Source: an uncultured Verrucomicrobiae bacterium (lineage in GTDB: Bacteria; Verrucomicrobiota; Verrucomicrobiia; Chthoniobacterales; UBA10450). Taken from it: a DNA stretch of 64,000 bases. Under the pieces are notes generated by a model. It worked only from the letters and a program-made list of their open reading frames with translations, did not search any database and was not told where the DNA came from. The position numbers and the translations under genes are program-made. The number at the start of each line of letters is the position of its first letter. Positions within the stretch are counted from its first letter, which is position 1. Shown here in pieces: positions 17,707 to 64,000 of this stretch. Location: contig CAVRYN010000012.1 of assembly GCA_963725505.1 (NCBI GenBank), positions 18,164 through 82,163 of the forward strand, given 5' to 3'.

Positions 17707-19078
17707 ATGAAGACGACTAGAATAGTCATTGCCGGTGGCGGCTTCGCCGGGCTTTACGCGGCGATGCACTTCGACAAACGGCTCGCGCGTCGATCGGACG
17801 TAGAGGTGACGCTGATCAGTCGCGAGAATTTCATTCTCTTTACGCCGATGCTGCACGAGGTCGCAGCGGGCGATCTTTATCCGGGCGACATCGTTAATCC
17901 GCTCCGGCGAATTCTTCGTCACGTGAAGGTTGTCGAAGCCGATGTATGCACGGTGTGATCTGACCGGCCGAATAGTCGGCTGCAGAGGCGGCATAGCGGA
18001 GCGCGAGCTGAATTTCGAGTTTGATCATCTGCTTCTGACACTCGGGTCGGAAACAAACTTCTTCAACATGGACGGCGTCCGTGACTGGGCGGTGACCATG
18101 AAAAATCTGGCGGACGCGTCACTCTTGCGTAACCGCATGGTCGCGCTTTTTGAAGAGGCGGTGTTCCAGACCGATGACGAAGCGCGCCGGGAGTTACTCA
18201 CGTTTGTCACAGCCGGTGGCGGTTTTTCGGGCACCGAAACAACGGGCGCCGTTAACGACTTCGTGCGGGAAACCGTGCGCTATTACCCGCAGTTGAGCGA
18301 GCAATTGATTCGAGTTGTGGTCGTTCATCCGGGAAATTTCCTGTTGCCGGAGTTAGGCGAAGAACTCGGGCGTTACGCCGAACGCAAATTGCGCCAACGC
18401 AAGGTGGAAGTGATCAAGGGCGCACGCGTGGCAAACTACGATGGGCTGGTCGTCACGTTAAGCGATGGCACATCGATTCCTGCCAGGACTCTGATCTGGA
18501 CGGCGGGTGTGAAACCAAGTCCGGTCATTGCACCATTATCTTGCGAGAAGGAACGTGGTCGACTCCTGGTTAGTGAGTACTTGGCGGTGACGGGTGTTCC
18601 TGGCTTATGGGCGGCAGGCGATTGCGCAGCCGTGCCTATCCTAAACACCGAAAACTTTCATCCACCAACGGCGCAGCACGGCTTACGGGAAGGAGTGACG
18701 GTTGCGAAGAACATCGAAGCTACGATTCTCGATCGGCCGCTCAAGCCGTTCCGTTTTAAAATGTTGGGACAGTTGGCGAGCATTGGTCATCATACCGGTG
18801 TGGCGATGGTGTTTGGGATCAAGTTTTCCGGTTTTATCGCCTGGTGGTTCTGGCGATCAGTGTATCTAATGAAGCTTCCACGCCTGGCTAAGAAGTTGCG
18901 AGTCATGGTGAGTTGGACACTTGATCTTTTCTTCGGCCAGGAAATCGAGCAGATGATCACGCTGCGCGATGTCGAAGAGCTAAGCAGCCAGTGGGCTCGA
19001 ATCCGCGCGCGCGCAAAGCAATCAAAGGCCGTCCCTTCTTCTGTGCTCGCCAATTCAGGTCACGATCAGGCAAAATGA
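17707..19078 (+). pseudogene. ndh: Type II NADH:quinone oxidoreductase (NDH-2), copy 2, one frameshift near 17945
   Basis: MKTTRIVIAGGGFAGLYAA (GxGxxG) in ORF 17707-17958. The remainder (second fold GGGFSGTE, WAAGDCA) is in ORF 17930-19078 in another frame. Confidence 0.8.
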
Positions 19079-19084
19079 ACGTCG

Positions 19085-20651
19085 ATGAAACCGTGGTGGG
19101 GACTTCGACAGGCTGTGGTGCAAACCTCTTTCATTGTAGTCGCAGAATCATTGGTGATTGTCGGCATCGCCTATGCGCGCGATGAGCCGCCCCCCTCGCC
19201 TGTGCGACCGTGGGCACCGCCAGCGCTTCCGAGGTACGAAGGAGAACTTCGCCAGTACCAACCGACTGAAGCTGAACGCCGTTATTTGCCTGCGATCAAT
19301 CCGCGCAAGACTTACAACCTCGCGGAGCTGATTGACATCGCGCAGCGCAGTAACCCGGAAACACGTGTTGCCTGGGAGCGCGCCCGGATGGCAGCGGCTG
19401 CCGTCGGTCTCACAGAGAGCGCCTATTACCCCTATATCGTCGCGGCTGCAGTCGGAGGATACGACCGCGCCTTCATTCCGTTTCCGCAGTTACGGACGAA
19501 GCTTCAACCGCCGCCGACCAACGGTAACCTCCCCAACGTGGAGATTGTCGGCGGAGGTACGTTAGTCACTGAGTCGTTGTTGGCACGGGCCGAGCTGAAC
19601 GCAAAGTGGTTGCTGATCGACTTCGGCGAACGCAACGCGATCCGGGCAGCAGCGCGAGAGAAATTGATGATGGCGAATGTCGGCTTCAACGGAACGCACC
19701 AAAAAATCGTCTTTGATGTCACCGATCGCTTTTACCAACTCGGCACTACGCGACAAAAGGTGATGGTCACTCAGAGCGCGCTGGAAGCGGCGAAAACTGT
19801 GGAGCAGGCGGCGCAGGCGCGATTCGACACCGGGCTCGCCACGAAACCTGAATTGCTCCAGGCCCAACAGCAGAGTGCGCAATCCAATTTTGATCTTCAG
19901 GCCAGTCTTGGCGCGGAGAGCGACGCCAGGGTCGCTCTAATCGAGAGCATCGGCCTTCTGCCGACTGTGACGCTCAAGGTGGCGGACCTGCCAGCGAAAA
20001 GTCGTGCCGATGCTCAGACTGAAGATTCTGTTGGTGATTTGATCACGAAAGCTTTGGCGCAACGGCCGGATCTCGTTGCAAAACTAGCCAACGTTCGTTC
20101 AAAGGAATATGAGATTCGCAAGATCCGCGCCGAGTATTATCCAAAGGTCACTTTGGACACGCACTTTAGCGAAACGGACCTGCAGGTCAGCGTCGCCAAA
20201 TCGGACTACTTCGGTGGCACCCGGCCGACCTTTGGCGCGTTTCTCAACGCTGGACGTGCCGATCTTCGATGGGTTCGCTCGCGGGCACAAACTCGACATG
20301 GCCGAGGCCGACTTGCATCAAGCGGAGAATGAACTTGCTGGAGCGCGCGACTCGGCTGCGCGAGATGTGTGGAAGGCGTACACCGGTTATAGAACAGCGC
20401 TCAAAAAACAGGACGCGGCTGAAAAGTTAGTCACGGCATCGAAGAGCGCATTCGACGCGGTGCTCGAATCCTACAAGCAAGGGCTGAGCACGTACACCGA
20501 GGTTGTTACTGCGGAACGAAATCTAACCGCGGCGCTTGCGACCAGTCACGACACGCAGGCAGCAATTTACACCACTCAAGCGGCCCTCGCACTGAGCGTC
20601 GGAGATCTTGCCCGCCCGGCGCCACCACTCGTCAGGAAGCCACGAAGATGA
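19085..20651 (+). pseudogene. Outer-membrane efflux protein (TolC/OMF family), one frameshift near 20250
   Basis: Two OEP repeats (AQRSNPETRVAWERARMA.., ALAQRPDLVAKLANVRS..). The C-terminal part continues in ORF 20109-20651. Confidence 0.8.
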
Positions 20652-55364: not shown

Positions 55365-55541
55365 CTTGCCTTTTACTGCAAAGAATCGCGTGCCTGATCG
55401 CTCAATGACAATGTGATTACGGCGAGACTTTGGCGGCTTATGAAGTGTGATCAAGACGAAAACGAGACGTCCTCAACTCGGCGCGAGCCGTGAGCAATCT
55501 CCTTCTTGCTCGAGCGCTGGGCGTGTGGCAGAAGCCATGCA

Positions 55542-57581
55542 ATGAATCCGAAGAATTTCTTCGGGGAACTGAAGCGTCGCAACGTTTACAAAGCTGCGGT
55601 CGCTTACATCGTCGCAGGCTGGGCGCTCGCCCAGGGAATCGCGCAAGTCTTTCCGGTGTTCGACGTTCCGAACTGGGTCGTTCGACTGATCGTTGTCTTA
55701 GTTATCATCGGTTTTCCGATCACGCTCATTTTGGCATGGGCGTTCGAGATCACTCCCGAAGGAATCAAAAGCACCGAAGAAGCCGACGCGATGCCGCCAT
55801 CGTCGCGGCCAAGCAATCGCACCTGGATTTACATCGTTGTCGTCGGCGCCGCAGTGTCGCTATCGTTGTTTTTCCTCGGTCGCTACACGGCGGGAAATAG
55901 AACAGCGTCGTCGGGCGATAGGAAATCGATCGCCGTGCTGCCGTTCGCTAGCTCTGAGCGAAAACAAGAGCGACGCCTACTTCGCCGATGGCGTCCAGGA
56001 TCAGATCCTGACCAATCTCGCCAAGGTCTCCGATTTAAAGGTGATCAGCCATACCAGCGTGCGCCAATACAAGACCGGCGCCGAACGCAACATGCGCGAA
56101 ATTGGCCAGCAGCTCGGCGTCGCTTACATCATGGAAGGTTCGGTTCGACGGGACCGAGACCGTCTTCGCATCAACGCGCAGTTAATCGACGCCCGGACTG
56201 ACGCTCATATATGGGCCGAAACTTACGATCGCACCGCGGCTGATTTGTTTGCAATCCAGAGTGAGCTGGCTCAATCGATTGTCACCCAACTGAAGGCGAC
56301 ACTTTCGCCGCAACAGAAGGCGGAAATCGAAGAGCGCCCGACTCAAGACCTGGATGCTTTCGAGCTTTACCTTCAGGCCAAGCCATCCATCGACAGCTAT
56401 CTTAATGCGACCGACGTGCGGGCGGCGTTGCTTCAGGCGCTGAAGTCGCTCGAGGAAGCGACCCAGCGCGACCCGAACTTCGTTTCCGCTTATTGTTATG
56501 CGGCGCGCGCGAACGATCTTCTTTTCTTTTTCGATCTCGATCCAAGCCAGGAGCGCGTTTCTCTCGCCGACGCTGCAGTCAAGGCAGCGCTGCAGCTGCT
56601 CCCCAATTCAGCGGAAGCGCATTTCGCCCAAGGGCGATTACTACTTCCGGTGCCTCCGCGACTACGATCGCGCCCAGGAAGAGCTGGCGATCGCGCGGTC
56701 CGGGCTGCCGAACAGCACACCGTTCTTTATTCTCTCCGGTTACATCAATCGTCGCCGCAACCATTTTGCCGACGCCGAACGCGATTTCTCCACCGCGTTC
56801 GCACTCGATCCGCGAAATCCGAATGCTTACAATCTTCTGGCTGACACCTATGTGCTGCGAACGCCGGTTTTCTGAAGCGGTCCACGTCTATGACAACGTG
56901 CTTGCTGCCGGCGAGGACGTCCCAATTGTCCGCTTCCGGCGCGCCTCATGCGCGTTTTCTGGGACCGGCGACTCTGGACCGCTCCGTGATATTCTGGCAA
57001 AATTTCCAGAAATGGAATTTGCCGGCTCCCAAACGCCGGCCCGCGTCTTGATGGCAATGCTCGACGGCAACTACGCCGAAGCGGACCGCGCCCTGGCCGA
57101 CTCGCCTCGACAAGACTTTCAAGACACCGACCTTAGCTTTTATTTCCCGAAGAGTTGGTACCAGGCAATGATCGCGCGCGCGAAAGGCGATTCAGCGCGT
57201 GCGACCGCGGCTTTTCGTGAGTGTCGCGGGATTCTGGCCCAGCGATTAATCGTCAAACCGGAACACGCGCGGACGATTGCTGTCCTCGCGCAGGTCGATG
57301 CGGGATTGGGCGAGAAGGATTTGGCCATCCGCGAAGCGCAACACGCGATCGATCTGATGCCAATTTCGAAAGACATTTACGATGGCGCATTGGTTCTGGA
57401 AGGGCTTGCCCAGGTTTACACCTGGAGCGGCGAGCGCGATCGCGCGATTGAGTTGGTACAGAAACTCGTGACCATGCCCAGCTACATCAACTACGCCCGC
57501 CTGAAATTACACCCGCTCTGGAGTCCGCTCCGCGGCGATCCCCGCTTCGAAAAGATCGTCGCTTCCCTTGCACCGAAATAG
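55542..57581 (+). pseudogene. Membrane-anchored TPR protein (FFGELKRRNVYK N-terminal family), 3 frameshifts
   Basis: MNPKNFFGELKRRNVYKAAVAYIVAGWALAQ, then KSIAVLPFA.LSENKSDAYFADGVQDQIL (TolB-N-like), then TPR repeats. Pieces in ORFs 55506-56201, 55837-56844, 56498-56875, 56493-57581. Shifts near 55947, 56632, 56855. Confidence 0.7.
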
Positions 57582-57628: not shown

Positions 57629-58969
57629 TTATTCTTCGTCCCAGGAAAGGCCCTCCGTGAAGATTTGCACCTGGCTACCTCCGTTCTCCGGCTTCACAAA
57701 GATCGTGAGCGAAGCGTCTCCCCGTTTCCGCTTCAGTATTGAAGAGGCCGGCGTGACCAGATCGCTGCCGTCGTTGGTCCAGCCTTGAACCTTGAGATTC
57801 GCGGCTAATTCAGCGCAGACGCTTTTCACGTTGGCCTTGCTCTTGAAGAGAATGTGTTCAACAAGCTCCTTATATTCGACGTCGGACGCGTCTTTCGTGA
57901 GGGCCAGGTCCTTGGCGTTGAGTTTGTCCTGCGCTGGTTCGAGCGCAGCTTTTTCACTGAGCTCAGTCGTCGGCTTGTCCGCTGCGTCCTTTTCGGGCTT
58001 TTCCGAATCGGCGACCTGAAACTCTTTTGGGATCTCTCCAAGCGGCGCGACAAACTTGAGATTGACCTCCCAGGTCTCGCCGAACACTTCGGCCTGACCA
58101 TCGGTAGTCAGTTCTCCCTGCACTTTGCCGTCCGCAAACTCGAAATTGTTTGTCTTGATCTGGCCGATCGAGCTGAAGCCCTGCTTCTTATGCGCGGTGT
58201 GAACCACCTCGCAGCCAAAGATGTCGCCGTCTTCGTGGAGCGAGATGATCAGCGCGCTGCCGAATTTACCAAACACGGCATTAAAGTCGGGCTTCTTATC
58301 TTTGGAATGATCCTTCTCAGTGAACACCAGCACCATGGACGGCTTATCGCCAAAGGGCTCGCGCCAATGTGCCGACACATAAGCCAGCTTCGCCTCCTTG
58401 CCGTTCCCTTTGAAGACGCCCGTCACCGAAGGCTTCACGTTGGCTGCCGGGCCCGGCTTTTTGGCGACTGTGGCCGGCATCGATTCCCCGGCGCGGAGCA
58501 GCGCCACATCGAAACGGACGTCAAAGCCGTCGGAAAACATCTCCTCCGTCTCATTCGGCTGGCTGGCTTTGCCACTTACCCGGCCATCCTGCAGCTTTAG
58601 TTCCCCGGTCGCATTACCGCGACGCCTGCCCAACGACGTGTTGCCGGCGCTGGCGCTCCACAGCTTGAGCGCCCCTGCCTTTGTGAACTCCAGCTTGATA
58701 TAGGGCCGTTTAAAATCGGGGTACCCACCATCTTTTTCTTTTTCGATCGCCTCCTTGAGCCTTTCGCTGGAAATCGCCTGACCGCTCAGAACCACCGCGA
58801 TCAGTTCCTCATCATCGCTCGTGGTCTCATAGGCGAGCGCGTGCGTCAGAGGATAGTTCTTACCGTTAACCATCAATGTCCCCTCGGCGGCGTTTGCTGG
58901 CTTGGCCCCTTCTTGCGCAAAGAGCGTCGCCGCGCCGCCGATGACCGCCAGTGCCGCCAGTAAACTCAT
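57629..58969 (-). CDS. Secreted hypothetical protein (446 aa)
   Basis: Start at MSLLAALAVIGGAATLFAQ (signal). Two similar ~150-aa segments, an acidic linker and a C-terminal ~90-aa domain. The ORF-track N-terminal extension runs through an intergenic repeat. Confidence 0.5.
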   Translation of the reverse strand: MSLLAALAVIGGAATLFAQEGAKPANAAEGTLMVNGKNYPLTHALAYETTSDDEELIAVVLSGQAISSERLKEAIEKEKDGGYPDFKRPYIKLEFTKAGALKLWSASAGNTSLGRRRGNATGELKLQDGRVSGKASQPNETEEMFSDGFDVRFDVALLRAGESMPATVAKKPGPAANVKPSVTGVFKGNGKEAKLAYVSAHWREPFGDKPSMVLVFTEKDHSKDKKPDFNAVFGKFGSALIISLHEDGDIFGCEVVHTAHKKQGFSSIGQIKTNNFEFADGKVQGELTTDGQAEVFGETWEVNLKFVAPLGEIPKEFQVADSEKPEKDAADKPTTELSEKAALEPAQDKLNAKDLALTKDASDVEYKELVEHILFKSKANVKSVCAELAANLKVQGWTNDGSDLVTPASSILKRKRGDASLTIFVKPENGGSQVQIFTEGLSWDEE

Positions 58970-59005
58970 GAATTTCTTAGTAGCCGTCTCATAAATCCCC
59001 GCGCG

Positions 59006-59081
59006 CTGTAGCCACGGCGCTGTGCGCCGTCCGGAACGGCGGCCTCCGAAGATGCAGACGCCCCACAGGGGCGTGGCTACA
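59006..59081. repeat. Pair of inverted CTGTAGCC-hairpin units
   Basis: + strand: CTGTAGCC ACGGCGC TGT GCGCCGT (59006-59030). - strand: TGTAGCC ACGCCCC TGT GGGGCGT (59058-59081). Confidence 0.55.
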
Positions 59082-59405
59082 ACAGTTGTGCGATGGCTTG
59101 TAGTCATAATAAATGCTTCTAGTGCGGCGGATGGATTCATCAAAGCCGCTGCCGATGGCAGATATTTCAGCAGCACAACAATGAACTGCCAAGAACGAAA
59201 TCGATGGACCGTTTCAAAAAATCTTGGCCGTCCGGAGCCAAAGACAATCCATTAACAACTTCTAATGCCTGCTCGCAAAGTGGTTCGGAATTGAGATCTG
59301 ACCCACGGCTCTCCCCCAAGGTCTCTCCCTCTCGATACCGTATGTGGCAGAAATTTGATGATCGTTGTCATCGCTGCCAATCGAGTTTCCGCAAAAGTTA
59401 CGATC

Positions 59406-60058
59406 ATGAAAGAATTAACAAACAACACCAGCAAATCAGAAAACGAACACGAGGAATCTACTTATGCACTTCTGATACGTTCGGAAGAGAAAAGACGCAA
59501 TCTGATCGAGATGACACTCTACTCGTTCTTGATTCTCGGGGCGGTCATCGCGATCTGGCAATTCACGCAACAACCAGTCGACATTCCGACAGCTGGATTG
59601 AAAGGAGCAGCCTGCGTTGTCACGAGCACCGACGAGCTTATCAATTGGGCGCGCACGGGCTCGTTGATGTGGATGACGTTCGGTCTTGCCTGCTGCGCCG
59701 TCGAGATGATGCAAGCCTCGATGCCGCGTTATGATGTGGAGCGCTTCGGCTTCGCGCCGCGCGGCAGCCCGCGCCAATCCGACGTGATGATCGTCGCTGG
59801 TACGCTTTGCAACAAAATGGCGCCTGCTCTTCGTAAGGTTTACGACCAGATGCCGGAACCGCGCTATGTCATCTCCATGGGCAGCTGCGCGAATGGTGGC
59901 GGAATTACCACTATTCCTATTCTGTCGTCAGGGGATGCGATCGCGTCGTCCCGGTGGACGTTTATGTCCCCGGCTGCCCGCCGAGCGCCGAAGCCCTTGT
60001 TTACGGCATCATGCTTCTTCAGAAAAAAATCCGCCGCACGGGCACGATCGAACGCTAA
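59406..60058 (+). pseudogene. nuoB: NADH-quinone oxidoreductase subunit B, chimeric N-terminus and one frameshift near 59905
   Basis: From ~59600: [50 protein letters not shown]. After a 1-nt deletion: [39 protein letters not shown], with stop at 60056-60058. The first ~65 codons are unrelated and AT-rich. Confidence 0.85.
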
Positions 60059-60074
60059 CAGCCGGAGCTAAGCA

Positions 60075-60793
60075 ATGACGGAAACGGGGAAGCTTGAAGC
60101 CCTGGCCGAGGCTGTGAAGACTGCCTTTCCCGATGCGGTGCTGGGCACGCGCCTCGCCATCGGGGAGCTGACGCTCACGGTGGAGCGCGCCCAAATCGCC
60201 GAGGTTGCGCAGTTTTTGCGCGACGATCCCGCTTGGCGGTTCAAGATCCTGATCGACATTTGCGGCGCGGACTATCCCGAGCGCGCGCGAGCGGTTTGAG
60301 GTGGTTTATCACTTCTTGAGCGTCTACGAGAATTTGCGGGTGCGCCTCAAGCTGTCGACAGACGCCATCTCGACCGTTCCAGCATTGTAAGCGTGTTCCC
60401 GGCGGCAAACTGGTACGAGCGCGAGGCTTACGATCTTTACGGCATCCTTTTCGAAGGCCATCCGGATCTTCGCCGACTCCTCACGGACTACGGTTTCCGA
60501 GGCCACCCGCTGCGCAAGGACTTCCCGCTCACCGGCTTCGTCGAGGTTCGCTATGACGAGGAGCAGAAGCGCGTGGTCTACGAACCGTGAAACTGCCGCA
60601 GGAGTTCCGCAGCTTCGATTTCCTGAGCCCATGGGAAGGCGCCCACTACGCGCCGCTGCCGGGCGACGAGAAAGCGGCAACGAAAGATAAGAGGCGAACG
60701 GCAGACGGGGCCGCAGCTTTGACCGGGAGTTTCGAGATGCGAGAGTTATTTACAATTGCAGTTACACCCTGTTATGGCGCGAAAGTTGTATAG
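60075..60793 (+). pseudogene. nuoC: NADH-quinone oxidoreductase subunit C, 3 frameshifts
   Basis: ORF 60075-60299, then [20 protein letters not shown] (frame 1), then ORF 60393-60590 ([34 protein letters not shown]), then ORF 60587-60793 ([17 protein letters not shown]). Shifts near 60288, 60388, 60588. Confidence 0.8.
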
Positions 60794-61461
60794 AATCGCT
60801 CTTGGAGGTTGTACGTCTGCACTGGAAGGCGCTTTGCGCATAAGTGCGGGCTCGACAGATTTGGAAGGCTGGAGAAGTGTCGCATCGAAGGACGTCAAAG
60901 AATGCTGGCGTGACCGTGCGCAACTTGCGGCGGCATTCTTAAGACCTGGAGATATCGTCTGCGATCTCGGAGCCGGCGCCCAGCCCCTCAGGAGCTTCCT
61001 TCCTGAAGGAGCATTATATATTGCTGTCGACTGCGTCGACACGCTTCCCGGAACCCACCTTGCGGATTTCAATGCGCCGGATTTCACCCTCCCCCACTGG
61101 ATTTCAACGTGCTCACCGCGCGGCGTAGAATTGGCTGAAGGACGAGGAAGCTTTTGTCGCGCGTCTCTCCCAGCTTGCCGAGGGCAAGTTCTTCATTTTT
61201 ACTTACGATCTTTGGGCCGCGCAGCGGGAGCTTGGTTCGCTCGAAGGGTGCATGGCGGTTTTCTCCCGATATGTAAGAAATCTCGCGCCGGCCATCGTCT
61301 TGCGGAGACGCGTCTTTTTCACAGGGAAATTAGGGCGCGGCGAAACAAATGGCGCTTTCAGGACGCCCGCAACGAACATATATTTGAAATATCTGCGGCC
61401 TCAGGAATACTTGGTGCTAAAGCTTCTGAAGCTGAAAATGATGCCACGATGGCTTGCCTGA
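60774..61461 (+). pseudogene. Small class I SAM-methyltransferase-like gene between nuoC and nuoD, about 2 frameshifts
   Basis: IVCDLGAGAQPLRSFL (motif I), YIAVDCV, then PLDFNVLTA.., then AEDEEAFVARLSQLAEGKFFIFTY..MAVFSRYVRNL across three frames (ORFs 60756-61553 and 61252-61461). Shifts near 61095 and 61125. Confidence 0.5.
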
Positions 61462-61495
61462 CAAAGGCGGCCTTTCCCGGAAAGAGAGCGATACG

Positions 61496-62740
61496 ATGGC
61501 TGATGGGGGTGGAACACCTGAAGCGGGAGGCGCGGGCTCGGACCTTTGCGTGAGGCCGCCCGACAACCGCAATTTCACCATCAATTTCGGCCCTCAGCAT
61601 CCGGCCGCGCACGGCGTGCTGCGCATGATTACGGAGCTCGACGGCGAGGTGGTGCGAAGGATCGATCCGCATGTCGGCCTTTTGCATCGCGGCACTGAAA
61701 AGCTCATCGAGTACAAGACCTATCTTCAGGCAATCCCTTATTTCGACCGGCTCGATTATGTCGCGCCGATGAATCAGGAGCACGCGTTCTGTCTGGCGAT
61801 CGAGCGTCTCCTCGGAATCACAGCGCCGATCCGCGGCCAGCTCATCCGCGTGCTCTTTAGCGAAATCGGGCGCATTCTGAGCCATATCCTCAACGTAACG
61901 ACGTTCGCGCTCGACGTCGGCGCGCTGACGCCTCCGCTTTGGGGGTTCGAGGAACGCGAAAAACTCATGGTGTTCTATGAGCGCGCGAGCGGGTCGCGTC
62001 TGCACGCGAACTATTTCCGGCCGGGCGGCGTGCATCAGGATCTGCCGCAGGCTCTGATTGACGACATTGCTGCGTGGTGTGATCCGTTCCTGAAGGTTCT
62101 TGCCGACATCGACGAGCTTCTTACCGACAACCGCATCTTCAAGCAGAGAAACGTCAATATCGGCGTTGTCAGCCTGGAAGACGCGATGGCCCACGGCTTC
62201 ACGGGCGTGATGATGCGTGGCTCCGGCGCTCCCTGGGATTTGCGCAAGGCCCAGCCTTACGAATGCTACGCGGATCTGGAATTCGACATTCCGATCGGCA
62301 AGAATGGCGACAACTGGGACCGCTACCTCATCCGCATGGAGGAGATGCGTCAGGCGGTCCGCATCATGAAACAGTGTCTTGAGCGGCTGAATTCACCGGC
62401 CGGGCGCGGCCCGGTCCTCCTGCCGAACCACAAGGTCACGCCTCCGCGACGCGCCGAAATGAAGAAGACGATGGAAGGCGTGATCCATCACTTCAAGCTC
62501 TACACCGAGGGCTTCCGCGTGCCGGAAGGCGAGGTTTACGCGGCCATCGAAGCGCCGAAGGGCGAGTTTGGCGTTTATCTCGTGGCCGATGGCACAAACA
62601 AGCCTTACCGCTGCAAGATCCGCGCGCCCGGCTTTCCGCATCTCGCGGCCATGGACTTCCTCTGCAAAGGCCACATGCTCGCCGACGTGGCCGCTGTGCT
62701 CGGCAGCCTCGATATCGTCTTCGGCGAGATCGACCGTTAG
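61496..62740 (+). CDS. nuoD: NADH-quinone oxidoreductase subunit D
   Basis: [46 protein letters not shown] and [13 protein letters not shown]. Intact. Start is ATG 61496 or the upstream 61454. Confidence 0.9.
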
Positions 62741-62788
62741 GCGGAACATCGCCTGCAGGCTCCGGTTCATCACTTCGATGAACTGGAG

Positions 62789-63196
62789 ATGCAAGTGGCC
62801 AAAACGTCAAAGAAAACCGAGCCTGCGCTTTGGGAAAAAGTGAAAGAGGGTGTGACCGCGGGCGACAAGGGCGGCCGTCCCGGGCAGTGGTCGGCCCGCA
62901 AGGCCCAAATGGCCGTGCAGGAATACAAAGAGGGCGGTGGTTATATCGGCCCTAAGAGCGAAGACAACTCGCTCGTGAAGTGGACCGACGAAGACTGGGA
63001 CACGAAATCGGGCAAGAAGAGCACGGAGACCGGCGAGCGCTATCTCCCCAGCGATGCACGCAAAGCGCTTTCCCCCGCCGAGTATTCCAAGACGACAGCC
63101 AAGAAGCGGCGCGACACGGCGAAGGGGCGGCAGTTCTCGCGCCAGCACAGAAAGAGGGCGATTGCAGAACATGCGGCCTATCGATGGACGGCCTGA
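62789..63196 (+). CDS. Small basic protein (GQWSARKAQ..KWTDEDW family; I believe DUF5872, unverified)
   Basis: 135 aa. EPALWEKVKEGVTAGDKGGRPGQWSARKAQMAVQEYKEGGGY..LVKWTDEDW. Confidence 0.5.
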   Translation: MQVAKTSKKTEPALWEKVKEGVTAGDKGGRPGQWSARKAQMAVQEYKEGGGYIGPKSEDNSLVKWTDEDWDTKSGKKSTETGERYLPSDARKALSPAEYSKTTAKKRRDTAKGRQFSRQHRKRAIAEHAAYRWTA

Positions 63197-63790
63197 CTAA
63201 GGAAGCAGCTGATCCGGAAAGCGAGGCCGTGGCATCAATGGAAGACGCTAGGCCAATACAAGATGAGCTTTCACGAGCTATCGCGTCCTGCTGAGAGTCG
63301 GTGCATGCAAGCAGCACGGGAAAAGGCCTGATGAAGAGGACTGCGAGCTGCGACGTTCGGCTGGCTTTATCATGTCCGACGACGTCAGCGAGTTGGCGAT
63401 CGGCTCAAACTGAGGAAACCAATCGGTTGGCTGGCATTATGGGGGCGAGCACAAGTCCATCGAGCCATTGAACCGTGGCGCGTCATGATAGACTCAGCGA
63501 AGCACGACAGCGGCCTCTCGAAGACACCGTGCCGACATGAAGTCGTCGCTATATCAAGCGGCACCTTGCGCAGCGCCCGCACCACGATGTTGAACATACC
63601 GCTGGCGCTACTCGCTCATGAACTGGGACGCACTCGTTGAAGGAGATACTCGCCGCCCGGCTCGCTGCAGGTTCGATCGACTCGGCCAAGTCGAAGTTGG
63701 TCGGATACCGCAAAACCTTAGGAAGGCGTCTCATCTACGCTATACCCCGGATAAGGCTGCGCTGTTCCTTGAGAGGAGGAATGACCGTCC

Positions 63791-64000
63791 TTATTGGTTG
63801 CGGCGCGCAAACGAAATCGGATAGGCGGCGTTCCGGATGTCGATCATCGGATCGTCGGACTGCTCGATCCCGTCCGGGAGCTGGCCGGGGAGGAACAGCA
63901 ACTTATTCTGGGCCTCGAAAGGATCGGCAGCCACCTTGGCGATGGTCAAGACGCCGATGTCCACCTCTTTGCGGTCATCCGGCCAGGGCTTCGACCCATC
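63791..64000 (-). CDS. C-terminal end of a catalase-related peroxidase (partial, runs off the window)
   Basis: Minus strand reads DGSKPWPDDRKEVDIGVLTIAKVAADPFEAQNKLLFLPGQLPDGIEQSDDPMIDIRNAAYPISFARRNQ*, with stop at 63791-63793. Resembles the SrpA-type catalase-related family. Confidence 0.6.
   Translation of the reverse strand, partial: DGSKPWPDDRKEVDIGVLTIAKVAADPFEAQNKLLFLPGQLPDGIEQSDDPMIDIRNAAYPISFARRNQ

Follow-up and report, generated by a model that had tools for sequence, protein, structure and literature searches.

A contig binned as Candidatus Udaeobacter switches at one point to Rhodomicrobium-like nuo genes and is very probably an assembly chimera

The locus described here shares with inter-genome chimeric contigs, a problem that GUNC and similar tools address (cited in PMC12313526), a switch of taxonomy and composition at one point, sides that are collinear with different organisms, truncated genes with no mobile-element signature, and a junction that was not reproduced elsewhere. 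It differs from them in a microhomology of 4-5 nt, which is more specific than a random join needs, and it is known here from sequence alone. Horizontally acquired pseudogene fragments likewise combine foreign DNA, junction microhomology, truncated and frameshifted genes and unameliorated composition, but at this locus selection is unrelaxed (dN/dS 0.02-0.13), no second junction is visible in the window, related host genomes lack the fragment, and host genes of the same contig are similarly frameshifted. The complex I genes of Hyphomicrobiales/Rhodomicrobium resemble those at the locus in family models scoring above cut-off, in local gene order and in their extra ORFs, whereas the window lacks nuoA and ~45 N-terminal codons of nuoB, and its nuoB and nuoC are frameshifted.

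The 64-kb stretch of DNA analysed here, the window, is part of a metagenome contig of 85.7 kb that had been binned as Candidatus Udaeobacter; many related contigs originate from metaFlye plus Medaka Nanopore soil assemblies (PMC12313526). Comparison with relatives placed everything 5' of a junction near 59.6 kb in Candidatus Udaeobacter (Verrucomicrobiota), and the ADH, hydrolase and FloA of the window had matches that either bear the name Udaeobacter or group with a protein labelled Verrucomicrobia, in line with an earlier, sequence-only reading that the rest of the window was not alphaproteobacterial in style. The stretch from 59,617 to base 64,000, the last of the window, shares 91-92% identity and full synteny with Rhodomicrobium-like alphaproteobacterial MAG contigs. 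The closest of these are L001 and L002, with L001 serving as the reference for indels, identity and dN/dS, while the Udaeobacter relatives L051, L052 and L055 were used for the native continuation of the other side. Only the left Udaeobacter flank of the alphaproteobacterial block lies inside the window, and no return to Udaeobacter sequence was found within the 64 kb, as alphaproteobacterial synteny reaches base 64,000. The contig is very probably an assembly chimera of two organisms and not a product of gene transfer, since the organism changes at a single position, the two sides follow the gene order of different lineages, the host does not reappear in the window, the junction has no mobile-element look, and frameshifts occur across the whole contig. 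The sequence-only reading had offered a decaying, horizontally acquired complex I fragment or a chimeric assembly join, and it is the second of these that is favoured and the first that is not.

Udaeobacter sequence could be followed gene by gene up to the junction. A lineage-specific gene for a secreted protein (57,629-59,176, reverse strand, with its true start likely near 58,966) shares 86% amino acid identity with its counterparts on MAG contigs of Candidatus Udaeobacter and has 47 related loci, mostly in Udaeobacter or Chthoniobacterales; it is intact and shows 0-2 gaps against its relatives. It is followed by a conserved 35-nt palindromic motif, a candidate Udaeobacter leader or operator (59,345-59,379, forward strand; TGGCAGAAATTTGATGATCGTTGTCATCGCTGCCA), which occurs once in the window, where 0 matches are expected by chance, and which has no match to an Rfam family. 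A degenerate form covering the observed variants matched 10 Udaeobacter loci, lying 5' of a DJ-1/PfpI-YHS gene in those inspected. The presence of this motif means that Udaeobacter sequence reaches as far as the next gene, the 5' part (~71 codons) of a small membrane-protein gene at 59,406-59,620 on the forward strand. Its homologues are 94-96% identical over the whole 70 aa, and the native protein has 89 aa from the same start. At the point where the window turns into NuoB sequence, the homologues go on ...AACVVCVDQFKTVGEARHSKVKG, and ungapped DNA homology to L051 (94.8%) ends at 59,620. L051, L052 and L055 all carry the small gene intact, then the leader motif, then the DJ-1/PfpI-YHS gene.

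On the other side, nuoB (59,617-60,058, forward strand) is present from about codon 46 to its stop, matches PF01058 and NF005012, and is Rhodomicrobium-like in alignment to L001. Its start is missing, with homology beginning 136 nt after the nuoB start in L001, and a 1-nt deletion at 59,902 leaves it an incomplete and interrupted coding sequence. Even so, the translation scored above the family cut-offs (171 bits against 116 for NF005012, 63.7 bits against 27 for PF01058) and carries cysteine motifs including VPGCPP, which in this family form the site of the N2 iron-sulfur cluster. The full-length nuoC (60,075-60,690, forward strand) is broken by five 1-nt indels into pieces that match NF004733 and cover positions 1-36 and 75-123 of PF00329. 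Next comes a lineage-specific ORF with several indels (60,813-61,461, forward strand; L001 gene call and tblastn), ~79% identical in two frames by tblastn and with a dN/dS of 0.32. Its counterpart has 217 aa in L001, is partly deleted in L002 and is absent from R. vannielii, and it showed no match to a Pfam family. The nuoD gene (61,496-62,740, forward strand) is intact and encodes 414 aa, with scores of 606.8 bits for NF004739 (cut-off 360, profile positions 1-384) and 566 bits for TIGR01962 (cut-off 459), and coverage of positions 1-271 of 271 in PF00346. NuoD is 98% identical to the best MAG proteins (including P0001), up to 95% to Rhodomicrobium sp. MAG proteins and 87% to R. vannielii; these identities bear out the alphaproteobacterial type of nuoB-nuoC-nuoD that had been read from the letters. 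A small basic ORF (62,789-63,196, forward strand) then follows nuoD, as it does natively: it has weak DUF5872 similarity (PF19197, 26.2 bits, slightly below the cut-off) and ~80% identity to the ORFs after nuoD in L001 and L002. The 3' end of a convergent catalase-family gene (63,786-64,000, reverse strand) runs off the window in native alphaproteobacterial synteny, with a product 95.7% identical to that of the PF00199 gene in the corresponding place in L001 and L002.

Of the 14-gene nuoA-N operon, the locus thus holds only a partial nuoB, nuoC and nuoD. The truncation at the 5' end that had been noticed from the sequence is real and can be sharpened to 59,617, ~45 codons into nuoB. The missing nuoA and nuoE, the small basic ORF and the convergent catalase-type end were likewise all found as described. 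The claim that the block is also incomplete at its 3' end did not hold: its gene order, including the small ORF and the convergent catalase, is that of L001 and L002, where nuoA lies upstream, the downstream genes are as in the window out to base 64,000, and nuoE is absent within 10 kb. Nor is the interruption between nuoC and nuoD an anomaly, as the extra ORF is also found in the nearest alphaproteobacterial contigs; in R. vannielii the nuo cluster is interspersed with other genes, with two ORFs between nuoD and nuoE. It is proposed that the nuo block serves its true owner as an unremarkable, working portion of complex I. The loss of nuoA and of the nuoB start, and the frameshifts, are attributed to the chimeric join and to consensus errors rather than to the biology of that owner.

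Three-way alignment of the window with L051 and L001 showed a single clean switch at 59,617-59,620, with alphaproteobacterial homology beginning at the first of these bases and Udaeobacter homology stopping at the last. The four letters between them, TTGT, are common to both parents, and the shared letters become TTGTC when L055 is taken as the Udaeobacter parent. Both genes are cut in mid-ORF, the 89-codon Udaeobacter gene after about codon 71 and nuoB at its entry at codon 46, and the two reading frames agree across the join, as would happen by chance in one case out of three. Native continuations were found for both parents, on the Udaeobacter side in L051, L052 and L055 and on the alphaproteobacterial side in L001, L002 and L054. 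No IS elements, terminal repeats or tRNA genes were found at the junction. Blunt ends joined at random would share a microhomology of 4-5 nt with a probability of ~0.016; such an overlap is as compatible with in vivo illegitimate recombination as with in vitro template switching, and is not expected for a simple ligation chimera. The 26-mer across the junction had 0 matches in 241 million JGI metagenome records, a search for exact matches in one collection and hence weak evidence.

If scaffolding, bin curation or the concatenation of two contigs had created the join once assembly was complete, no sequenced molecule would ever have spanned these bases. The abrupt change of organism, the truncation of both genes and the collinearity of the sides with different lineages would suit such a join, and public MAGs of the Udaeobacter group are visibly contaminated by mis-binned contigs, with Udaeobacter-type loci filed under Nitrospirota, Alphaproteobacteria, Acidobacteria and Pirellulaceae. 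However, the join contains neither a run of N nor a linker, its 4-5 nt overlap and unbroken frame suggest a real or chimeric molecule rather than two ends pasted together, and the raised error density nearby is better explained by a thin bridge of reads, so that I consider a post-assembly origin highly improbable.

The composition also changes at the junction. GC rises from 0.47 at 59,200-59,599 to 0.61 at 59,600-59,999, and GC3 from an average of ~0.63 in the upstream genes to ~0.77-0.80 in the nuo genes. The tetranucleotide profile of 59,617-64,000 correlates at 0.86 with Udaeobacter loci and at 0.935 with the non-homologous part of L001, while for the preceding 4.4 kb the order is reversed (0.94 and 0.874, respectively). 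A breakpoint in composition had been suspected from the letters, and this check showed it to be real but modest. These values also bear on the idea that Udaeobacter inherited nuoBCD vertically as native genes that only look alphaproteobacterial, for which nothing speaks but their location on a contig binned as Udaeobacter. Against it stand the switch in tetranucleotide profile and GC3, the DNA identity and full synteny with Rhodomicrobium-like contigs, a nuoB without its first 45 codons and with no nuoA, and the DJ-1/PfpI-YHS gene that occupies the position in Udaeobacter relatives. Native Udaeobacter nuoBCD genes, extremely improbable on these grounds, are refuted by the alphaproteobacterial identity and synteny, the composition switch, the native continuation in the relatives and the alignment at the breakpoint.

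Relative to L001, nuoB has one frameshift, at 59,902 (-1), adjoining a substitution, and nuoC has internal frameshifts at 60,287 (+1), 60,378 (-1) and 60,583 (-1) plus two more 1-nt insertions, at 60,682 and 60,687, in its last three codons. That makes six frameshifting indels in the 1.07 kb of nuoB-nuoC, against zero in the 1.25 kb of nuoD. The counts made from the sequence alone had been one for nuoB, three for nuoC and none for nuoD. After correction of the frameshifts, amino acid identity to L001 was 98.6% for NuoB, 96.0% for NuoC and 97.8% for NuoD. The dN/dS values were 0.02, 0.13 and 0.03 for nuoB, nuoC and nuoD, respectively, none of them approaching 1 as under relaxed selection. In nuoB and nuoC, the two frameshifted genes, nearly every substitution is synonymous; nonsynonymous changes are rare and conservative, with two of them immediately beside indels.

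Frameshifting is a property of the whole contig. In the Udaeobacter part, both NDH-2 genes, an OEP gene and 3HCDH are split across frames, and a YWTD-repeat protein and a TPR protein probably are as well. The NDH-2 frameshift at 17,956 is one inserted T, the sole indel against an independent MAG contig of 99.25% identity, in which NDH-2 is intact at 456 aa. The earlier description of the nuo genes as decaying is therefore not upheld, given their purifying-selection dN/dS, their synonymous changes and the absence of a frameshift of the same kind from the 99.25%-identical assembly. Indel density was ~0.2 per kb in the Udaeobacter part (9.35 kb against 99%-identical references) and 5.6 per kb in nuoB-nuoC, roughly 25-fold higher than on the adjacent Udaeobacter side. 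As a proxy drawn from indels, this inequality suggests unequal read support on the two sides. The Udaeobacter side bordering the junction is free of indels, and the high-error stretch covers ~1.9 kb of the alphaproteobacterial side; since the indels are confined to this stretch and nuoD is clean, an account by low coverage needs a local dip rather than uniformly low coverage.

The main competitor of a chimeric contig is a real and very recent transfer, in which at least 4.4 kb of Rhodomicrobium-like DNA would have entered the Udaeobacter chromosome by microhomology-mediated illegitimate recombination, destroying the small membrane-protein gene by fusing it in frame to nuoB codon 46 and leaving a non-functional nuoBCD fragment whose indels would reflect genuine decay at an early stage or else mistakes in sequencing. 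A clean junction with TTGT(C) microhomology and no junk is a classic footprint of illegitimate recombination, the unameliorated composition and the 91-92% identity to the donor would suit a recent event, the acquired side has more than its share of indels, and assembly and binning treated the contig as a single molecule. Nevertheless, the window shows one junction only, followed by alphaproteobacterial sequence in native order to its end. Real decay with six indels predicts dozens of neutral substitutions, at odds with a dN/dS of 0.02-0.13 and an indel-free nuoD; if the indels are errors instead, the ~25-fold gap in density implies a difference in read depth that is not expected within one chromosome. 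Three Udaeobacter relatives show the native continuation, and the exact 26-mer of the junction is absent from the JGI metagenomes. Transfer, which is very unlikely, is further disfavoured because a streamlined soil bacterium fixes a random piece of non-functional DNA far more rarely than metagenome assembly yields a chimeric contig. That the contig records a capture of at least 4.4 kb prior to amelioration, with an in-frame fusion of the small Udaeobacter membrane protein to NuoB residues 46-192, is quite improbable. The observation is most likely biologically ordinary, with no gene transfer behind it.

The identity of each side, the position of the breakpoint, the native synteny of both sides in relatives, the marks of purifying selection in the nuo genes and the frameshifts along the contig, one of them specific to it, were observed directly. 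I infer that the join arose from a technical step and not in vivo, and that long reads were assembled. Bases 1-59,620 derive from Udaeobacter (Verrucomicrobiota); bases 59,617-64,000 are the nuoB-nuoC-ORF-nuoD-ORF-catalase region of a Rhodomicrobium-like member of the Hyphomicrobiales (Alphaproteobacteria), and the two parents were probably united in vitro or in silico. A well covered genome may have been bridged to a poorly covered one by a chimeric long read or template-switch product, with the join falling on a microhomology of 4-5 nt that lies mid-gene in both parents. The frameshifts of nuoB and nuoC would be uncorrected consensus errors in the poorly covered stretch by the join rather than pseudogene decay. 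Frameshifts that coincide with intact purifying selection and a contig-wide background of frameshifts give a practical rule for telling consensus error from decay without reads.

The value of the case lies mainly in quality control, as at least 4.4 kb of a public MAG contig labelled Candidatus Udaeobacter is alphaproteobacterial. A reader who trusted the label would ascribe mitochondrial-type complex I genes, or a transfer between phyla, to Udaeobacter, and either reading would distort metabolic reconstructions and HGT surveys of one of the most abundant soil bacteria. A real join would offer a rare glimpse of illegitimate recombination across phyla, yet the fragment would still be non-functional.

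The nuoB-nuoC-nuoD block of the window was observed accurately, and the reading that suits it best is an assembly artefact in which unremarkable genes of two equally unremarkable soil bacteria were joined. The sequence-only reading had offered two alternatives, a decaying acquired fragment or a chimeric assembly join, and the second is supported by a switch of organism at one point that coincides with a change in composition. Complex I genes are recognisable in the interval, namely a partial nuoB (~59,617-60,058; PF01058, and NF005012 at 171 bits for a cut-off of 116), nuoC (60,075-60,690; PF00329 and NF004733, matched piecewise), an ORF without a Pfam family, and an intact nuoD (61,496-62,740; NF004739 at 607 bits and TIGR01962 at 566 bits). 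A small basic ORF (62,789-63,196) lies 3' of nuoD, and 63,786-64,000 holds the 3' end of a convergent gene of the catalase family. The closest matches of NuoD were MAG proteins at 98% identity; identity to proteins named Rhodomicrobium sp. was at most 95%, and to R. vannielii ATCC 17100 87%. A native Udaeobacter origin of the nuo genes is refuted.

Two Rhodomicrobium-like alphaproteobacterial MAG contigs (L001 and L002) carry the 98% NuoD homologue in the order nuoA-nuoB-nuoC-217-aa ORF-nuoD-88-aa ORF-convergent catalase gene, with the 217-aa ORF complete in L001 only and partly deleted in L002, and neither has nuoE within 10 kb. Other genes are likewise interspersed in the R. vannielii nuo cluster, where nuoA and nuoB are separated by a GT25 glycosyltransferase and nuoD and nuoE by two ORFs. 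The block had been described as interrupted and, for want of a nuoE after nuoD, as incomplete at its 3' end; these gene orders show that both features are native to the alphaproteobacterial lineage and are not damage. DNA identity between the window and L001 was 91-92% from 59,617 through nuoD and patchier (77-90%) beyond nuoD, reaching base 64,000. The cluster is naturally broken up in the Rhodomicrobium lineage (L001 7605-13198, L002 8011-13200, and L054 7225-14908), and the MAG lineage nearest to the window is the one in which nuoABCD with the extra 217-aa ORF is followed by a catalase-family gene.

The upstream side belongs to Candidatus Udaeobacter. The neighbouring 515-aa ORF (57629-59176, minus strand) shared 86% identity with MAG contigs of Candidatus Udaeobacter, and its relatives comprised 47 loci, overwhelmingly from Udaeobacter or Chthoniobacterales; exact look-ups of window products returned identical proteins named Candidatus Udaeobacter sp. 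Five of the loci (L024, L030, L037, L040, and L042) place a Udaeobacter-type 515-aa gene of 66-75% identity in MAGs labelled Nitrospirota, Acidobacteria, Alphaproteobacteria, Pirellulaceae, and Terriglobia, which suggests mis-binned Udaeobacter contigs in those MAGs. The AT-rich ORF running into nuoB (59406-59620, plus strand) is a Udaeobacter-specific small membrane protein with homologues 94-96% identical over all 70 residues. These homologues continue ...AACVVCVDQFKTVGEARHSKVKG to a native total of 89 aa, while the window enters NuoB sequence instead and lacks the native 3' end of the gene (…GTCTGCGTAGACCAG…). Three loci show the small gene in its native context (L051, L052, and L055): next comes a conserved leader motif and then a DJ-1/PfpI-YHS gene, and in L052 and L055 a homologue of the 515-aa gene also lies upstream. 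The native continuation was seen in these homologues of the small ORF and not among the 47 loci of the 515-aa gene, whose neighbourhood is poorly conserved in synteny and in which a tblastn search with the small ORF matched the leader motif only.

Homology to Udaeobacter (L051, 94.8%, gapless) stops at 59,620 and alphaproteobacterial homology begins at 59,617, leaving TTGT common to both parents, or TTGTC when L055 is used; the small gene and nuoB are both cut mid-ORF and fused in frame by chance. An extension of the alphaproteobacterial part by 30 nt upstream of 59,617, where weak similarity to the nuoB 5' region is seen, was rejected because these bases match the Udaeobacter homologue almost perfectly. 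The composition break proposed at the start of the block was borne out, with both GC3 and the tetranucleotide profile changing at the junction: GC3 rises from ~0.63 to ~0.77, and the profile of 59,617-64,000 correlates at 0.935 with the non-homologous part of L001 and at 0.86 with Udaeobacter loci, compared with 0.874 and 0.94, respectively, for the preceding 4.4 kb. The microhomology of 4-5 nt, for which a random blunt join gives a chance of ~0.016, is also the footprint of illegitimate recombination in vivo and leaves some weight on a real, very recent insertion between phyla, as does the error-rich zone being local instead of spread over the whole alphaproteobacterial side. Such an insertion is nonetheless judged quite unlikely. 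Signs of a mobile element or an integration site are lacking at the junction: a repeat scan detected neither IS-like repeats there nor direct or inverted repeats flanking it, and a tRNA scan placed the nearest tRNA gene 8.6 kb away. The junction 26-mer had no match among 241 million JGI metagenome records, and a Udaeobacter-side probe retrieved the native continuation only.

Whether the nuo block is decaying was assessed against L001. The frameshifts previously counted in nuoB (one) and nuoD (none) were recovered, and the three given for nuoC became five frameshifting indels, two of them within the last three codons. With indels removed, nuoB and nuoC showed 98.6% and 96.0% amino acid identity and dN/dS of 0.02 and 0.13, and nuoD showed 97.8% and 0.03. 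The nonsynonymous differences were few and conservative (e.g. I to V, S to A, F to L), and two, the Y to N change at 59,903 and the P to T change at 60,584, directly adjoin indels, a pairing that resembles compound base-calling or consensus errors. In bacterial pseudogenes substitutions are several-fold commoner than indels, and by a rough estimate tens of neutral substitutions, mostly nonsynonymous, would be expected alongside six real neutral indels in 1.07 kb. The nonsynonymous excess predicted for neutral decay was absent from nuoB and nuoC, and if indels accrued neutrally at 5.6 per kb, ~7 would be expected in nuoD, where none was observed. The reading as a decaying, horizontally acquired fragment is not supported.

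The Udaeobacter part carries frameshifts too, so the nuo block is not unusual in having them. An NDH-2 gene (353-1,582) is broken across two frames or more, a 3-hydroxyacyl-CoA dehydrogenase (3HCDH) has lost its C-terminus (~3447), and a second NDH-2 (~17,950) and an outer-membrane efflux (OEP) gene (~20.1-20.3 kb; ~20100-20330) are split. For a YWTD-repeat protein (1,774/2,078; 1774-2626) and a TPR protein (55.5-57.6 kb; 55506-57581), the frames overlap and a split is probable, with Pfam matches that do not link the pieces. These Udaeobacter frameshifts cluster at the window start. Once corrected, the second NDH-2 shared 99% identity with a 456-aa protein that is intact in the independent Candidatus Udaeobacter MAG GCA_049800455.1, whose contig matches the window at 99.25% over 2,275 nt with a sole indel, an inserted T at 17,956 that breaks NDH-2; judged from this alignment, the frameshift has the look of a consensus error and not of a pseudogene. 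Over 9.35 kb of 99%-identical comparisons (L003, L053, and L056), the window showed two single-base indels and one 30-bp indel, a background of ~0.2 single-base indels per kb versus 5.6 per kb in nuoB-nuoC. Genuine frameshifts throughout, as in a mutator Udaeobacter lineage, were rejected as the main explanation, since nuoD is free of indels, a nonsynonymous excess is missing, and the NDH-2 frameshift is absent from the 99.25%-identical MAG. Frameshift errors are suggested to be common in this class of assemblies; in the long-read MAG MFD02242.bin.2.32 (L047 10546-11370), the homologous 515-aa gene is broken into three frames when compared with that of the window.

The data are most simply explained by an error-prone metagenome contig: a chimeric read or template-switch product could have bridged reasonably covered Udaeobacter sequence to thinly covered Rhodomicrobium-like sequence, and indels would then stay uncorrected in the 1-2 kb beside the bridge. 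The assembly is probably long-read, and many related contigs come from metaFlye and Medaka Nanopore soil assemblies (methods in PMC12313526). A join made after assembly appears even less probable than a real insertion. Exact look-ups at NCBI/ENA placed FloA, an alcohol dehydrogenase, an alpha/beta hydrolase, another window protein, and NuoD all on one 85,671-bp contig; FloA was additionally matched to a 1.3-kb Logan contig. The analysis spans the 64-kb window, with 21.7 kb of that contig falling outside; among the cluster members listed, no downstream alphaproteobacterial genes or Udaeobacter DJ-1 gene were seen on it.

On the Udaeobacter side, a 35-nt nested palindrome, TGGCAGAAAT(T/A)TGATGAT(C/T)GTTGTCAT(C/T)GCTGCCA, is conserved in Udaeobacter, where it precedes the small membrane-protein gene and the DJ-1/PfpI-YHS gene adjacent to it, ~25-30 nt before their start codons. 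It occurs at 59345-59379 of the window, L055 1313-1347, and L052 10186-10220, and in eight further loci (L011, L012, L016, L017, L018, L023, L034, and L050). An Rfam scan of 58.9-64 kb returned zero RNA families, the palindrome included; it may serve as operator for the neighbouring AraC/GlxA-type regulator or form an RNA hairpin. An imperfect inverted repeat with 36-nt arms (TGTAGCCACGGCG...CGTGGCTACA; 59007-59081 / 58987-59072) lies upstream of the 515-aa gene, with a similar copy elsewhere in a Udaeobacter contig (L052 13089-13175), and the window lacks, at ~50802, a GC-rich hairpin-like segment of 30 bp (..GCCACGGCGAGTCCGTCCTGTGGCGGACT..) that L053 carries. Both the inverted repeat and the 30-bp segment may be REP or MITE-like elements.
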